From the IMG/VR virus record IMGVR_UViG_3300042350_003801: a DNA stretch of 64,000 nucleotides; one strand, 5' to 3'. This document shows positions 16,117-57,079 of this stretch, one piece after another. The first letter of the stretch is position 1. Each line of letters opens with the position of its first letter. Both the position numbers and the translations under genes were made by a program. The notes beneath the pieces were generated by a model, which saw only the letters and a list, made by a program, of their open reading frames with translations, searched no databases and was not told the origin of the DNA. The DNA is from a virus. Lineage: Duplodnaviria; Caudoviricetes.

Positions 16117-17799
16117 TCAATAATTGTAATTCCAGAAATAAGAATAGTCGTCATCTGTTGTATGCCAAAGATTACCCTCACTATCTCTCTCGGCCCCCAG
16201 ATATTTGTCATATAATTCTGCAATTTCATTAGGAAGGGAATCTGATGAAGAAACGAACCCAAATGGGGTAGAGTCATTTTCTTCTAGTTCTTTTTCGTGC
16301 TCCTCCCTAAATTTTTTGCGAATATCTGTCTCGGTCATTTCCTTGAAATATTCTTGAGTGCATATCCAGGCAAATAATACAAGGCACATTGTTAGGTCAT
16401 CATTCTTACCTTCTTCTGCACTAAAACTATTATAACGGGAAACAAATGTTGTAAGTTCCCCGATAATATCCCGGTCGTTAAAGATGAGTTTATCTTCTTC
16501 AATGAATGTTTTTAAATTTAAACAACCGGTTCTCTTTACTGGTTTTGACATCTTAATGCCATACTTAACACCTTTACCCGCTAGATTTTGACCTGCAACT
16601 TGACCACCCCTTCCCAAAGTTTTAGTTTGAATAATATTGGGATATCCAAGTTCTGTGTGAAGAATGTATGCAACCTGAGAATCATTATTGACTTCACATA
16701 GAATAAATGCATCATTATATGCCCTCCCAACAGGTTCAATAACATCTGGATATCTTATACTTGGAATGTCATTATTTTTATATTTTGCAACAATTTTATA
16801 GGGAATTTGTGTCGCATCAAATACAACAAATGCGGAATAATCTAATTCAACACCCTCAGCAACGTCTACAGTAATAACGTAAATTTTACCTGGTATTGGT
16901 TCTACATAAACATCTAAAAGGTCTTTGGACCTTATTGGGGTATCTGAAACTAGATTGGATAATTTTGCCCCACTAATGAGAGTATCCGAGGAACCTAAAA
17001 AGTCACATTCAAATTCGGCGTCCCAACGGGACTGTCCCATATTTGCGATAGTTTCGTGCTTAAACTTTTCATCTCTACCTGGAACATCTTGCCAATAAAC
17101 TCTAGTTGGAATATATTTATTTTTCTGTTTTATCGCATCATCCCATAATTTATAGAACTGATTCATTCCATTAGGGGTGCTGACAATTATAACTTTTGTC
17201 TCTTTACCCGATGTAATAGTTGGATAAACCGAACTCATAAAGTTATCCGCCACTTGTTGTGGCACGAAAGCAAATTCATCAAGAAAGATAATGTTATAAG
17301 TACCACCTCGGACGGATGATGCTGAAGTAGATGCGGCAATAATTTTAGAACCATTTTCGAGTTCCATTGAGCCCTTATTCCAAGAGCAAACACCTTGTTG
17401 CATCCATTTTGGAAGATTTTCGTAACCCGTTTGTAATCTATTGAGAATATCCCTGGCCGTGCTCGCCTTGTTTGCTAGAACCGCAATGTTTATGTTATCA
17501 TTAAAAATAGCATATTGTAGAAGAAATGCTACTACAGTCGTACTTTTTCCACTTTGGCGTGGAAGTAGACAAATATTAAATCGGTTAGCCAAGAAAGAAT
17601 TCAACATCCTTTCCTGGAAAGGATAAGTATCAAAAGGTTGCAAACCGTGATCAAGAGTCACAATTTGCATATAATTTTTAGCAAAATAAACTGGGTCTAA
17701 GGAGCACTTAGTTAGTTCAAATACTTGCTCTTGGGTTAAGTCTTGCCTGGTATACGCCTTTTTAAGAAGCGGGTTACCAAGATAGTGTTCTTCAGACAT
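16117..17799 (-). CDS. gp17: terminase large subunit
   Basis: Walker A PRQSGKST, Walker B IIFLDEFAF, STPNG coupling motif, and nuclease residues VDVAEG...NDDL. Confidence 0.97.
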   Translation of the reverse strand: MSEEHYLGNPLLKKAYTRQDLTQEQVFELTKCSLDPVYFAKNYMQIVTLDHGLQPFDTYPFQERMLNSFLANRFNICLLPRQSGKSTTVVAFLLQYAIFNDNINIAVLANKASTARDILNRLQTGYENLPKWMQQGVCSWNKGSMELENGSKIIAASTSASSVRGGTYNIIFLDEFAFVPQQVADNFMSSVYPTITSGKETKVIIVSTPNGMNQFYKLWDDAIKQKNKYIPTRVYWQDVPGRDEKFKHETIANMGQSRWDAEFECDFLGSSDTLISGAKLSNLVSDTPIRSKDLLDVYVEPIPGKIYVITVDVAEGVELDYSAFVVFDATQIPYKIVAKYKNNDIPSIRYPDVIEPVGRAYNDAFILCEVNNDSQVAYILHTELGYPNIIQTKTLGRGGQVAGQNLAGKGVKYGIKMSKPVKRTGCLNLKTFIEEDKLIFNDRDIIGELTTFVSRYNSFSAEEGKNDDLTMCLVLFAWICTQEYFKEMTETDIRKKFREEHEKELEENDSTPFGFVSSSDSLPNEIAELYDKYLGAERDSEGNLWHTTDDDYSYFWNYNY

Positions 17800-48898: not shown

Positions 48899-49449
48899 AA
48901 ACTTTTGAGCAGTTTATAGAAGAAGCCCGAAGAATACGAGTTCTTAATACATCACATTATACTAGTAATGACAGTAAGGCAAATATCTTACAATCTGGAT
49001 TTAAAGATTCGCCTTCAACTGGCGCTTATCATCCCGATAGTAATAAGAGAACGGTTTACACCACGCCATCTTCAAGAGTTGGGAGAGATTATGGGCACGC
49101 ACGAGTTAATCTAAAACTAGTTAATCCCAAGGTAACAACTACAAATTCTCCAAAACAATATAAGGACAAGGTTAAAGAATTGGTGATGAAACACGATGGT
49201 TATGACTTACAGAAAAAAGCCAAAGAAATAAGCCCGTTTCACCAATCAAGACGAGCCATCGAATCTGGAGCAAAAGTTGTAAGAGCACCAGATGCCCACG
49301 GAGTTGGTCGTTCTGTGGATAGGGCAAGAGGCTCTTATGTTATGGTGGATAAAGATGTTGCAAACAAGAGCATTTCAAGAGCACCTTCTGCAACAATGCG
49401 AAGTGTATCAAAACCAAAAAGAACTAAAACACAACCGAAGAAAAAATGA
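48895..49449 (+). CDS. capsid-targeted internal protein with ADP-ribosyltransferase-like motif
   Basis: Leader MKTFEQFIEE; HYTS...ILQSGF...GAY...VYTT...DYG resembles the H-G-T / G-x-Y core of HYE-class ARTs. Confidence 0.55.
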   Translation: MKTFEQFIEEARRIRVLNTSHYTSNDSKANILQSGFKDSPSTGAYHPDSNKRTVYTTPSSRVGRDYGHARVNLKLVNPKVTTTNSPKQYKDKVKELVMKHDGYDLQKKAKEISPFHQSRRAIESGAKVVRAPDAHGVGRSVDRARGSYVMVDKDVANKSISRAPSATMRSVSKPKRTKTQPKKK

Positions 49450-49628
49450 AAACTTTTGAGCAGTTTATAAACGAGGCAAACGCAGCAAAACCCGATGCCC
49501 TGAGAACTATTGAAAGAAAATGGGAAAACCGACCTGACCATAAAGGTGTAAATGTTTATGCAACTAAAAAAGATAGCCATATAAAACTTCACGATTTATT
49601 TGTTCCACCACATTTGAGGGGTTTTTAA
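49446..49628 (+). pseudogene. capsid-targeted GNAT-like gene truncated by IS607
   Basis: Leader MKTFEQFINE; ends LHDLFVPPHLRG at the start of a GNAT motif A (RGxGxG); its stop codon lies inside the IS left end. Confidence 0.6.
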
Positions 49629-49686
49629 ACAATAGTAGATTTGCTACTAAATACTAATGTCAAATAACAAATACTACTAAATAAAT

Positions 49687-50280
49687 ATGTATGTAACATT
49701 AAAGGAGGCTCGTAAACAACTGGGGTTACACCCAAATACTCTTAGAAAATATGCCGACGAAGGTATTATTGATACAATTAAAACTCCTTCTGGACAGAGA
49801 AGATTCAACATTGAGTCTTTCATACAACAAAAACAAAATAGTTTGCAAACAATTCTTTACTGCAGAGTTTCTAGTGCTAGACAAAAAGACGACCTCAACA
49901 ATCAGAAAAATTATCTCATCTCCAAGTACCCAGGAGCAGAGGTCATCTCTGATGTTGGCTCTGGACTCAATTTTAAACGAAAAGGTTTGCGTACCATTCT
50001 GGAACGATTATCGCGGGGAGATTCAATCAAACTTGTGGTTGCCGAGCGTGACCGACTTTGTAGATTCGGATTTGAACTCGTTGAGTATCTCATCGTTAAA
50101 AACGGTGGAGAACTCGTGGTTCTCAACCAAATTGCAAGTAGCCCCGAAAGTGAACTCGTATCCGACATCCTTTCAATCATCCACGTCTTCTCTTGTAGAA
50201 TTCACGGGATGCGAAAGTATAAAAATCAAATCAAAGAAGATAAGGATTTACCCAACCCAAACCCAAAAATTAATTCTTAA
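49687..50280 (+). CDS. tnpA: IS607 transposase (MerR-like HTH + serine recombinase)
   Basis: LGLHPNTLRKYADEG...TPSGQRRF; YCRVSSARQKDDL (catalytic Ser); DVGSGLNFKRKGL; RDRLCRFG; ELVSDILSIIHVFSCRIHGMR. Confidence 0.96.
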   Translation: MYVTLKEARKQLGLHPNTLRKYADEGIIDTIKTPSGQRRFNIESFIQQKQNSLQTILYCRVSSARQKDDLNNQKNYLISKYPGAEVISDVGSGLNFKRKGLRTILERLSRGDSIKLVVAERDRLCRFGFELVEYLIVKNGGELVVLNQIASSPESELVSDILSIIHVFSCRIHGMRKYKNQIKEDKDLPNPNPKINS

Positions 50281-51361
50281 AAATTGGTTCGGTGCTTCTA
50301 GATTTGCTTTTAATGAAACTGTCAACTTTTTAAATGAAAGTGGGCAAAACGCAAATTGGAAAACAATAAAAACTCCTTTACTAAAATCACTTCCAGAATG
50401 GTCAACTAATGTTCCTTATCAAATAAAATCTGTTGCGATTAGAGACTGCTGCAAAGCGTTCTCTATGTGTAAGAGAAAAAATAAAGGAATAACAAAAGAC
50501 AAATGGCACAAAGTTAGTTATAGGAGTAGGAAGGATAGTAAGCAAACGATTTACATTCCAAAATCTGCGATAAAGGAAAAAGGAGTTTATTATACTATTT
50601 TAGGTGAATTGAAAATAAGTGAGGGATTACCTCAAAAAATTATGGATTCCAGATTGACGTTAGACAATGGCAATTATTATCTTATTATTCCTTATGAGCA
50701 AGAAACAACTCTTAGCGAGAATCAAACTAGAGTTGTTGCTTTGGACCCGGGAATCCGAACTTTCCAAACTTTTTATAATCCAGAATTTTCTGGACTTTTA
50801 GGAAATGGAGACATCGGAAGAATTACGAGACTTTGCCAACATCTGGATAACTTAATATCAAAAAAATCAAAATCGGCTTCAAAGCAAAAACAAAGGATTG
50901 GAAAAGCGATTAAAAGAATGAGGAACAAGATTAAAAATCTCGTTGATGAAATGCATCATAAAGTTTCCAAATTTCTAGTTGAACATTTTGACATTATATT
51001 TTTACCATCATTTGACGTTAGCCAAATGGTTAAAAGAGGTAAGAGAAAACTAAATTCAAAAACCGCACGTTCTTTATTAACTTGGTCACATTATAGATTT
51101 AAATGTTTTTTGAAGAATAAATGTGAAGAGTTTAATAAATTACTGTTAATTGTAAATGAAGCCTACACATCAAAAACTTTGTCTTGGACCGGAAGAATCA
51201 ACTATTCTTTAGTGGGTTCTAAGATTATACAAGATGATAGCCATTGTGTCAATAGAGACATAAATGGTGCCCGGAATATCTGGGTAAAAAGCGTCTCAAG
51301 AATTCTTGAGACTTTGGGAGATAGCCCCTCAGGTACTAATACCTGTGCATTGTTAACTTAG
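49952..51361 (+). CDS. tnpB: TnpB RNA-guided nuclease, pro-Fanzor-like (start uncertain; the frame is open from 49751)
   Basis: KIRIYPT...WFGASRFAFN; RuvC-I ALDPG; canonical RuvC-II Glu absent (IFLPSFDV); alternative Glu in VNEAYTSKT; RuvC-III NRDINGARNI. Confidence 0.92.
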   Translation: MLALDSILNEKVCVPFWNDYRGEIQSNLWLPSVTDFVDSDLNSLSISSLKTVENSWFSTKLQVAPKVNSYPTSFQSSTSSLVEFTGCESIKIKSKKIRIYPTQTQKLILKNWFGASRFAFNETVNFLNESGQNANWKTIKTPLLKSLPEWSTNVPYQIKSVAIRDCCKAFSMCKRKNKGITKDKWHKVSYRSRKDSKQTIYIPKSAIKEKGVYYTILGELKISEGLPQKIMDSRLTLDNGNYYLIIPYEQETTLSENQTRVVALDPGIRTFQTFYNPEFSGLLGNGDIGRITRLCQHLDNLISKKSKSASKQKQRIGKAIKRMRNKIKNLVDEMHHKVSKFLVEHFDIIFLPSFDVSQMVKRGKRKLNSKTARSLLTWSHYRFKCFLKNKCEEFNKLLLIVNEAYTSKTLSWTGRINYSLVGSKIIQDDSHCVNRDINGARNIWVKSVSRILETLGDSPSGTNTCALLT

Positions 51362-51400
51362 GTTAGCAAAATTCTATCGGCAATGAGTGCTGACTGGTTT
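51300..51400 (+). ncRNA. predicted 3' part of the TnpB omegaRNA (scaffold to 51380, guide from the flank)
   Basis: Hairpins caggta-ctaa-tacctg (51330-51345) and tgttaac-ttag-gttagca (51351-51368) at the transposon right end. By established TnpB biology the guide is the flanking sequence. The 5' boundary is unknown. Confidence 0.5.
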
Positions 51401-51477
51401 GACAAGATTATCTTAGAGAAATAATATTCTCACTTGTGATAAAACTATGAATCTAATGCCACTAGTCTAATTTATTT

Positions 51478-52071
51478 TTATGGTGCGATTTGATAAGCGC
51501 CAGAAAGGTCAAAGTGCGCATCTTTATTACCACTACTTGCCCAAAAACCACTGTTTGGCGTATTATATTTCCAATCTAAATCTGTAGTTGTTGAAAAATA
51601 ATATAGTTTCATCAGTGACAAACCTTCTGCAACATCAACAATTGCTGCAATATGAAACCTACTTGGGGAACCAGTTCCAGATGTCATATGTAAACTGCCA
51701 CCACGAATAGAAGTGGTGGCAGCAGCAGGAAATGGAAGAGTAAATTGATATTGACCGGTTCCGTATGTTGTCGTCGCGGAAAACTGAACATTTAATCTAA
51801 AGTGACAAATCAATCCCTGTAGAACATAAGAAGCTGTTACAGAACCACCACCAATTGCAAATGTTCCAGAAGCATCGGTAAATTGTGGATTGAAAGTTTG
51901 GTTCACCGAGACAATACCAAAAGGAATACCTCCAGGTGTTATTCCATCCGAAAGACGAATTGGGGTTGTTCCATTAATATCATAAAAAATTTCTCCCCTT
52001 TTACCAATGTATTCAGATGCCGTGGTAGCACCCATTTTATCTGCATAAAGTTTGAAAGTAGTATTAGACAT
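51478..52071 (-). CDS. small fibre-like structural protein (Mtd_N/hyaluronidase-like N-terminus)
   Basis: YIGKRGEIFYD...IRLSDGITPGG motif; CTAAATA late motif near 52101. Confidence 0.6.
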   Translation of the reverse strand: MSNTTFKLYADKMGATTASEYIGKRGEIFYDINGTTPIRLSDGITPGGIPFGIVSVNQTFNPQFTDASGTFAIGGGSVTASYVLQGLICHFRLNVQFSATTTYGTGQYQFTLPFPAAATTSIRGGSLHMTSGTGSPSRFHIAAIVDVAEGLSLMKLYYFSTTTDLDWKYNTPNSGFWASSGNKDAHFDLSGAYQIAP

Positions 52072-52131
52072 CGGATTTTTACTTATCCTTTCTTTTTATA
52101 TTTAGCATTCCTTTGAGTTTTTTGTTGTGGT

Positions 52132-53070
52132 TTAATATGTCTGTTCTTTCATTTCATATTCTTGATTCCAGACATCAATCCCAATATTAGCAATCATCTC
52201 TTCTTTCCACTTATTATTTCTTCCTGGAATCTTATCCCATTTGATTAGAGTTCTTACAAACTTATTCTTACCGTCTTCGGAGTCTTTCCAGATTTTGCTG
52301 AAACAATCATCCCGTTGTTTAATTGAAGATGCAATGATGACTTTAGTAGATTTACTTGCAGTAAACATAGAGAAAATCTTAATGAAGAAGTCTTGTGCAT
52401 CCTTATCCGAAACAAATGCAAACTCATCAAGATATACAAGGTCAAAACTCCGACTTTTGAAAGTGTTGTAAGATGTATTACTGGCAATAACCCTAGAACC
52501 ATTCTCCAATTCTAATGTGGACTTATTATTAATGATAACTTTATGTTGCATCCATTCTGGAAGATTTTCATAAGCAGTCTGTAATCTTTCTAGACTATTA
52601 CGAGCATCTGGGGCATTGAAAGAAAATATTCCATCGGTTACATTATCATTAAAGATGATGTGATGTAGAAGGTAAAAAAGACCGGTTGAAGTTTTACCTG
52701 CACATCTTGAACTTTTACAGATGTTGAATCGGTTGTTGTGATACTTATTAATCAGGTCTTCTTGATAAGGATAGAGTTTGAAGTCTGTGAGTCCCTTATC
52801 AATTGTGACAGTTTTTACATAGTTATTGATGAAGTATACTGGGTCTTTCTCACATTTTTGCAACTCTTCAAGGTGTTTAATGGTTTGCTTGTGTTCATCC
52901 GTGGACCAATAATGATTATCCCATCCACACATTATTGCATTTGCAAACCAGGAGCGCATTAGGTCTTCGTCTCCTCCATGTAGTTCTACAAATTCTTTTG
53001 CCCATCGTTGGGCGTTCATATCATTATTCGGGGGCTTCATTTTGATTTGTTCAGGTGTGAGTTGTTTCAT
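52132..53070 (-). CDS. terminase large subunit paralogue, ATPase domain only
   Basis: KCEKDPVYFINNYV, YPYQEDL, Walker A SRCAGKTS, LELENGS, Walker B VYLDEFAFV. Ends at WNQEYE before the nuclease domain. Confidence 0.85.
   Translation of the reverse strand: MKQLTPEQIKMKPPNNDMNAQRWAKEFVELHGGDEDLMRSWFANAIMCGWDNHYWSTDEHKQTIKHLEELQKCEKDPVYFINNYVKTVTIDKGLTDFKLYPYQEDLINKYHNNRFNICKSSRCAGKTSTGLFYLLHHIIFNDNVTDGIFSFNAPDARNSLERLQTAYENLPEWMQHKVIINNKSTLELENGSRVIASNTSYNTFKSRSFDLVYLDEFAFVSDKDAQDFFIKIFSMFTASKSTKVIIASSIKQRDDCFSKIWKDSEDGKNKFVRTLIKWDKIPGRNNKWKEEMIANIGIDVWNQEYEMKEQTY

Positions 53071-55062: not shown

Positions 55063-57079
<2,017 letters not shown>

Follow-up and report, generated by a model that had tools for sequence, protein, structure and literature searches.

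The 64,000-nt virus stretch IMGVR_UViG_3300042350_003801 (Duplodnaviria; Caudoviricetes), called the window below, carries an insertion sequence (IS) of the IS607 family whose tnpB gene, encoding a pro-Fanzor-type predicted RNA-guided nuclease, most likely starts inside the upstream transposase gene tnpA. We consider it very probable that this is an intact mobile IS607 element of a T4-like cyanophage, in which the overprinted TnpB and a right-end guide RNA mediate RNA-guided homing or retention. With more reserve, we lean towards a wider proposal: the N-terminal domain that has been described as exclusive to Fanzor2 of eukaryotic viruses would be an old prokaryotic feature made by overprinting tnpB on tnpA, carrying the residues that read the pseudoknot in ApmFz2 (Acanthamoeba polyphaga mimivirus Fanzor2), and solo right ends of the element would possibly serve as orphan guides in trans. 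The element is organized as follows.

49620 to 51380, plus strand: complete insertion sequence of the IS607 family, 1761 bp, delimited by the two points at which similarity to copies L001-L007 sets in and breaks off between unrelated flanks
49687 to 50280, plus strand: tnpA, IS607 serine recombinase of 197 aa, with a MerR-type helix-turn-helix (HTH), a resolvase domain and the catalytic Ser in YCRVSSARQ
49952 to 51361, plus strand: tnpB, pro-Fanzor-type predicted RNA-guided nuclease of 469 aa; ATG 49952 is the most likely start, with AGAGG 9 nt upstream
49952 to 50280, plus strand: putative dual-coding stretch of 329 nt, read in frame 0 as the 3' part of tnpA and in frame +1 as the N-terminal domain of tnpB (its first ~110 codons)
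49616 to 49621, plus strand: target site and predicted target-adjacent motif (TAM), the purine-rich flank GAGG and then the crossover GG; two purines lie 5' of the left-end GG at seven insertion sites

The carrier is a freshwater T4-like cyanomyovirus, because the window codes for a T4-type large terminase, a T4 neck protein and a psbA fragment, matches isolated-phage DNA only in Synechococcus/Prochlorococcus myovirus terminase genes (~67% identity) and occurs in lake-water metagenomes; an initial annotation of this DNA had likewise named a cyanophage. Three of five other IS-carrying contigs tested also have T4-type terminases, and psbA was detected in none of the five other carrier contigs in which it was looked for.

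Searching IMG/VR with the TnpB protein yielded eight loci, to which the window was compared by BLAST. Similarity extends from 49620 (49617-49639 depending on the locus) to exactly 51380, at 96% identity in L001 and L002 and 77-79% in L003-L007, and no sequence outside these limits is common to the window and the copies. All copies start with GG and end with CGG, and GG is found at both ends of all seven full copies and of a mini element, matching the crossover signature of IS607 ends (PMC10711439). GG at both ends leaves a 2-nt ambiguity (left 49620 or 49622, right 51378 or 51380), within which the limits proposed by the initial annotation (49622-51380) are confirmed. Neither terminal inverted repeats nor a target duplication were seen at the element. 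The full copies occupy six different contexts, ten different flanks follow the same right end across the family, and the two bases before the left GG are purines at 7/7 independent left junctions. This suggests RRGG as the predicted target or TAM, near the GGG TAM of ISXfa1 and ApmFz2 (PMC10711439, PMC11832414). The transposase matches NF033518 (IS607 family transposase; 5.6e-53, 179 bits against a cut-off of 110), PF00239 (resolvase, 3e-18) and PF00376 (MerR-type HTH, 1.5e-7), in agreement with the intact serine recombinase claimed earlier.

Shortened derivatives accompany the full copies. The mini element (184 nt) joins left-end bases 1-40 to right-end bases 1614-1761. Solo right ends in other viral contigs measure 87-167 nt (most 114-117 nt), begin at 51214-51294 in window numbering and all terminate exactly at the right end (51380).

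L195:7079-7245, L195:12956-13072, L194:6700-6847, L196:2193-2306, L190-L192, L198 and L202 (IMG/VR contigs): solo right ends and one mini element made of left and right end

Because the same element stands in different contexts with unrelated flanks, and because of the mini element and the solo right ends, we judge from these comparisons that it is an intact, recently mobile IS607 insertion sequence. The solo right ends can also be read differently, as traces of a domesticated phage gene whose TnpB and guide were co-opted for competitor-phage exclusion or regulation after transposition was lost. They are mostly 97-99% identical to the window's right end (89% in L198, 96 nt), they lie in several phage contigs, some recur at orthologous sites in three contigs, and their guides are possibly used in trans; in addition, the G+C content of the element matches that of the phage. 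Yet tnpA is intact and retains its catalytic Ser, the sites occupied by full copies differ between contigs, and the catalytic triad is intact, unlike that of nuclease-dead domesticated TnpB derivatives, which makes domestication unlikely. The solo right ends may be orphan guide modules.

Several minor observations concern these remnants. The flank of one 117-nt solo right end (L184:208-240, the would-be guide) resembles a tRNA T-arm and acceptor 3' strand, GGAGTTCAATTCTCC then GGTCCGCCA, and a tRNA-like sequence adjoins the solo right end of L008; element remnants seem to sit in phage tRNA clusters. The contig depth of the right-end segment in lake run X6 is ~8-fold above that of the rest of the element. 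At L129:237-378 the guide-RNA model matches a second time, at a distance from the tnpB of that locus; this is a possible solo right end in a distant relative.

The tnpB frame is open upstream to 49703, deep in tnpA, and no ATG, GTG or TTG adjoins the conserved core (KKIRIYP). We place the start most likely at ATG 49952 because the first Met of the sister copies L003-L007, which have a stop further upstream, aligns there and because the Shine-Dalgarno-like AGAGG lies at the spacing given above; this Met stands ~10 residues ahead of PFWN, as in solo relatives and in L003-L007. From the alternative ATG 49751 the frame is also open and would yield 536 aa and a 530-nt overlap, and dual coding in the window would thus cover at least 329 nt and up to 530 nt. 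The initial annotation had the TnpB residues it named right, but it gave no tnpB start and missed the N-terminal domain overprinted on tnpA. Many of the cluster representatives have 520-545 aa, of which the part from residue ~130-150 onward matches, and the N-terminal extensions of long relatives share PYWN, LWLPT and NSWF motifs with the upstream frame of the window. At ~150 loci from bacteria, phages and giant-virus metagenome-assembled genomes (MAGs), tnpA lies upstream on the same strand and the tnpB frame runs open for ~155 codons ahead of the core; wherever there is an adjacent tnpA match, the offset of this frame from tnpA is +1. A TnpA-TnpB fusion through a programmed frameshift was set aside, as solo relatives open the domain with their own Met.

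An open +1 frame could also be a by-product of tnpA conservation or codon usage, in which case the true TnpB would start at GTG 50150 or TTG 50132, both in frame and close to the core, and would have no Fanzor2-like N-terminal domain. Some +1-frame similarity is indeed expected, as LWLPT-type motifs overlie the conserved tnpA motif VVAERDRL. We compared 87 distinct intact tnpA genes with 200 synonymous-codon shuffles. The tnpB (+1) frame contained on average 1.4 stops, compared with 5.3 after shuffling and 13.4 in the +2 frame, and its longest open run averaged 177 codons (79 shuffled, 43 in the +2 frame). For the window tnpA, 0/200 shuffles reached the observed open run; at 37/87 loci at least one shuffle equalled it, so that the test alone is not decisive. 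We regard as decisive the loci that have lost tnpA: at no fewer than 16 of them, giant-virus loci included, tnpA is truncated, stop-riddled or undetectable, and the predicted tnpB nonetheless keeps the Met, the ~10 residues and the PFWN...NSWF domain. Synonymous divergence (dS) from L003-L005 points the same way, being 0.70-0.85 in tnpA before the overlap, ~3-fold lower inside it (0.24-0.30) and 2.3-5.3 in the tnpB-only part. The Trp of NSWF (W123) is invariant in the 46 sequences of alignment A2 despite demanding one particular synonymous codon in tnpA. With the frame open across ~150 divergent loci and the region modelled at confidences of up to 91 (see below), we consider a by-product frame very unlikely and the overprinted domain the better account. 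We found no mention of the tnpA/tnpB reading-frame overlap or of a pro-Fanzor N-terminal domain in the literature searched, although a description elsewhere is possible.

49994 to 50122, plus strand: TnpB N-terminal motifs PFWN (49994), WLPS (50036) and NSWF (50111-50122), predicted counterpart of the Fanzor2 RuvC-R subdomain

The N-terminal region was aligned by phmmer with ApmFz2 from residue 66 on, and residues 13-88 of a structure model superposed on residues 53-130 of the solved ApmFz2 (9b0l) in VIA-align. Canonical TnpBs lack this domain, their structural alignments starting at model residue ~90; among the chains listed, the alignments of canonical TnpB and of most Cas12 start at model residues 83-92, and those of a few CasX/Cas12e at 48-49. 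The NSWF motif matches the NSW motif of ApmFz2 (Asn82/Ser83/Trp84), of which Asn82/Ser83 in RuvC-R contact the guide-RNA pseudoknot (PMC11832414). Judging from the model, the N-terminal domain of the window TnpB is homologous to that of Fanzor2 (RuvC-R plus thumb), the NSW motif included.

Downstream of this domain, the active site is of the pro-Fanzor type.

50744 to 50746, plus strand: predicted RuvC-I catalytic Asp in DPG, aligned to ApmFz2 D324
51005 to 51007, plus strand: Pro at the canonical RuvC-II Glu position (IFLPSF), aligned to an ApmFz2 Gly
51158 to 51160, plus strand: predicted relocated catalytic Glu (NEAYTSK), aligned to ApmFz2 E467
51257 to 51259, plus strand: predicted RuvC-III catalytic Asp (RDING), aligned to ApmFz2 D501 and invariant in alignment A2

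The two Asp and the relocated Glu lie at the codons given by the initial annotation, which had also reported correctly that no Glu stands at the canonical RuvC-II position and that the four-Cys zinc finger is missing: no CxxC...CxxC occurs between RuvC-II and RuvC-III, and TLSWTG...SHC stands in its place. tnpB lies on the same strand as tnpA, both genes falling within 49687-51361. The protein is no chance reading frame, because it matches NF040570 (RNA-guided TnpB family) with an E value of 1.2e-45 and because the representative library contains 6821 relatives; Pfam TnpB domains match as well. Among 161 relatives from genomes and viral contigs, DPG was present in 155, the relocated Glu in all 161 and Pro at the canonical Glu position in 136. 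A C4 finger was found in 25/161, and an SWTG-like replacement in 123/161, from which we conclude that finger loss is a trait of this clade, as far as the relatives show, and not decay. Since finger loss has been recorded in some large TnpB branches (PMC10691335), the C4 finger is common rather than defining for TnpB. The D324/E467/D501 triad of ApmFz2 has been seen in its structure (PMC11832414), and inactive mutants back D324 and E467, E467A being inactive (PMC10530073). The predicted D-E-D triad of the window TnpB is complete, with its Glu relocated. TnpB is under strong purifying selection, the ratio of nonsynonymous to synonymous divergence (dN/dS) being 0.04-0.10 in the tnpB-only part. 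The least likely reading, that of a decayed relic in which TnpB was inactivated by losing the canonical RuvC-II Glu and the zinc finger and the element is passenger DNA, would suit the absence of both features, of a conventional start codon adjoining the core and of expression data, but both losses are clade-wide and not local damage, the alternative Glu is aligned to E467, which experiments have shown to be essential, the dN/dS is as low as stated, all frames are intact in seven copies, and there are several recent insertion sites. As a side observation, a perfect sigma-70 consensus (TTGACA, 17 nt, TATAAT; 12/12) lies at 51224-51252 on the minus strand, directed antisense into tnpB; the 96% copies have it and the 78% copies do not, and it may be an antisense regulator or chance.

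A sequence search of the PDB returned ApmFz2 (9b0l) as the best hit (E 4.8e-22), with ISDra2 TnpB at E 0.35. AlphaFold2, run on the 469-aa form with 148 homologues, gave a model with a mean predicted local distance difference test (pLDDT) of 88.7 and a predicted template modelling score (pTM) of 0.86. Confidence in its N-terminal segment was partial (pLDDT 77, 91, 65, 48, 86 and 82 in 10-residue blocks), and the thumb part was of low confidence (54-65). Foldseek ranked 9b0l first (E 1e-23). VIA-align placed model residues 13-454 on 9b0l residues 53-518 over 408 residues with a Z of 26.2, tied on Z with ISDra2 TnpB 8exa (26.3, 319 residues). The modelled TnpB has a WED-REC-RuvC fold, and the structure prediction called for by the initial annotation thus yielded a fold closest to 9b0l by Foldseek; it is the sequence alignment that places the triad on that of ApmFz2.

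A quick maximum-likelihood tree of 122 sequences grouped the window TnpB with phage relatives (Shimodaira-Hasegawa-like approximate likelihood ratio test, SH-aLRT, 100). This phage group is nested in a 65-row pro-Fanzor clade (SH-aLRT 98) of cyanobacterial, Chloroflexota, Poribacteria and Latescibacteria elements. The canonical outgroup consisted of two phage TnpBs only, and both fell outside; relative to these two, TnpB lies in the pro-Fanzor radiation, as the initial annotation had predicted. Giant-virus Fanzor2-like sequences formed a separate clade that is not sister to the window's phage clade, and the earlier suggestion that phages were a vector towards eukaryotes finds no specific support here. 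The nearest cellular relatives (~50% identity) are from filamentous cyanobacteria, and further relatives occur in Chloroflexota, Poribacteria, Latescibacteria, Synergistota and >200 IMG/VR stretches. Close relatives with the same tnpA/tnpB layout were found on genome contigs (L011-L090) of Latescibacteria, Poribacteria, Caldilineaceae, Dehalococcoidia, Synergistales and others, among which are many MAGs associated with sponges or sediments. Two isolated phages also carry relatives. That of Vibrio phage F100 (L009, 2890-4203) is solo, has DVG for DPG and starts just past the NSWF position; that of a Microcoleus phage (L172, 1940-3625) is annotated as a single 561-aa hypothetical protein and is the long overprinted form.

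The right end of the element has the properties of a guide RNA (omegaRNA, or right-end RNA, reRNA).

51266 to 51380, plus strand: putative guide-RNA scaffold at the right end, the ~115-nt minimal module kept by solo right ends
51320 to 51324, plus strand: predicted pseudoknot arm 1, GAUAG in a hairpin loop, pairing with 51374-51378
51374 to 51378, plus strand: predicted pseudoknot arm 2, CUAUC, just 5' of the terminal GG, pairing with 51320-51324
51381 to 51400, plus strand: predicted guide segment, derived from the flank and beginning at the first base past the conserved right end

The last ~100 nt of the element, including 19 non-coding nt, show much stronger conservation than the coding sequence that precedes them; dS under the guide-RNA stretch is 0.26-0.33, against 2.3-5.3 in the rest of tnpB, and the fold of the right end has a z-score of -4.6. 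A covariance model built on 51240-51380 (R1) found full-length matches at the tnpB 3' end of 64 loci besides the window, all on the plus strand. Paired positions made up 91.5% of the cells of the R1 alignment, compared with 64% in shuffled sequences and ~42% with slid partners, and 43/45 pairs showed compensatory changes, values that are inflated because the alignment was fitted to the model. The pseudoknot escapes this weakness, because it was absent from the model behind the alignment: it is paired in 95.2% of cases across 66 sequences (81% shuffled, 11-38% slid), and 4/5 pairs covary. ISXfa1 requires a pseudoknot with the last scaffold nucleotides (PMC10711439). As an alternative partner of arm 2, the closing stem of the minimum-free-energy fold (51236-51240/51374-51378) was rejected; neither L003 nor L005 conserves it, and the solo right ends lack it. 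A conserved, structured right-end guide RNA with a covarying pseudoknot is thus supported comparatively, as the omegaRNA expected in the initial annotation. From the length of the solo right ends we take ~51266-51380 as the scaffold, and from the family we infer that the guide, in length and use, corresponds to 51381-51400; the latter had been proposed before, and is consistent with the IS607 reRNA architecture (PMC10711439) and with the exact right end.

By analogy with the family, we propose that TnpA would excise and insert the double-stranded element by GG crossover. The 3' end of the tnpB transcript, running through the right end into the flank, would be processed into the guide RNA, whose ~115-nt scaffold would end in the pseudoknot and GG and whose guide would comprise ~20 flank bases from 51381. 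TnpB loaded with this RNA would cut phage genomes with an empty site, recognizing purine-purine-GG followed by a guide match, and recombination with an IS-bearing genome would copy the element back, amounting to RNA-guided homing or retention. In a T4-like phage, prone as it is to recombination, such homing would be expected to work efficiently when phages co-infect a cell.

Beside the fitting of the R1 alignment, several points weigh against this interpretation. We know of no biochemically characterized TnpB or Fanzor that is without a zinc finger, and the window TnpB has none. The in-frame alternatives ATG 49751, TTG 50132 and GTG 50150 compete with ATG 49952 as the tnpB start. A scan of 49000-52200 against Rfam returned no family at E values up to 1, and all 24 runs containing the locus are DNA, so they offer no RNA-seq support for the guide RNA or for an internal tnpB start. 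Finally, an empty-site allele was not found in IMG/VR, in JGI metagenome contigs or in lake-water contigs. Relatives of the flanking 197-aa gene show no synteny with the window; exact guide and left-flank patterns gave nothing or chance matches only in IMG/VR, the guide and left-end patterns gave no match in JGI metagenome contigs, and Logan contigs of four lake runs showed no joint skipping the element. The insertion in the window can therefore not be dated, and its natural target is undemonstrated.

The closest described systems are the pro-Fanzor (TnpB2) IS607 TnpBs of cyanobacteria (Yoon et al. 2023, PMC10711439). In common with the window element they have DPG and the relocated Glu (six residues into E-x-Y-T-S-K), a right-end pseudoknot RNA, ends with a GG crossover and, ahead of tnpB in the same orientation, an IS607 serine recombinase gene. 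Unlike these, the window element resides in a T4-like cyanophage, and its TnpB has no CxxC...CxxC finger and fails the regular expression of that group (Glu six residues before the first CxxC), although its relocated Glu is correctly placed relative to YTSK. The published pattern demands the finger and would therefore miss the window clade. Pro-Fanzors were stated to be exclusive to cyanobacteria (PMC10711439), whereas relatives of the window element also occur in non-cyanobacterial phyla and viral stretches. That paper makes no mention of an N-terminal domain or of an overlap with tnpA (PMC10711439).

ApmFz2 is the best solved relative by both sequence and Foldseek. It has the same relocated triad, the same N-terminal domain with WxPT and NSW motifs and an IS607 context, and a G-rich TAM would be expected; the giant-virus relatives L160 and L167 show the same tnpA overlap. 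The window TnpB differs in its ~24% identity, its prokaryotic-virus host, in which no leader bearing a nuclear localization signal is needed, the missing zinc finger, a longer WLPS-NSWF linker and a scaffold of ~115-140 nt, compared with 205 nt; its clade is not the sister group in the tree. Fanzor2 are encoded by eukaryotes or giant viruses and have a nuclear localization leader; the carrier here is a T4-like phage. Canonical TnpBs, such as those of ISXfa1 and other IS607 elements and of ISDra2 (IS200/IS605), have the same WED/REC/RuvC core (VIA-align Z 25-26) and the same logic, in which a transposase works beside a guide-RNA nuclease, through which the donor site regains the element. They differ in the canonical Glu position, D-hydrophobic-G at RuvC-I and the C4 finger, and ISDra2 further in its Y1 transposase and single-stranded DNA. 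The census of Altae-Tran et al. 2023 (PMC10691335) already contains clades with rearranged RuvC-II, virus-enriched branches and C4-finger loss; we found no description of dual coding with tnpA in it.

If the overprinting proposal holds, IS607 elements of bacteria and phages had already brought together the relocated active site and the Fanzor2-type N-terminal domain, and the long conserved dual-coding stretch would be part of the design, sharpening the model of descent from TnpB to Fanzor. Many pro-Fanzor TnpBs annotated as short proteins would then lack an essential domain, and assays on them would mislead. Compact finger-less pro-Fanzor nucleases intended as tools would have to be cloned from the start inside tnpA and not from the apparent start of the core. 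The solo right ends of related phages may likewise be orphan guides, relying in trans on a borrowed TnpB when phages co-infect. For phage biology, an RNA-programmable homing element would join the protein-guided homing endonucleases and introns that crowd T4-like phages, and the copies show that such elements are mobile among lake phages, where mini elements and solo guide modules remain as their traces. The statement of cyanobacterial exclusivity and the zinc-finger-based search pattern undercount pro-Fanzors.

The surroundings of the element offer a few further observations. The psbA fragment lies at 55681-56049 on the minus strand and covers only profile positions 140-240 of PF00124. Besides the full gp17 (16117-17799), a second, short terminase-like gene with the ATPase domain alone (PF03237, 6.5e-9) occupies 52132-53070 on the minus strand; the IS-carrying phage contigs G003 and G004 likewise contain one full terminase copy and one of 259-260 aa. 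At the left end of the element, the gene at 49446-49628 is the third of three tandem genes with an MKTF(E/Q)QF start and stops after 60 aa. Its final two codons and stop come from the IS left end, and precise excision of the IS would end it five codons later (~63 aa); the IS does not obviously truncate this gene.

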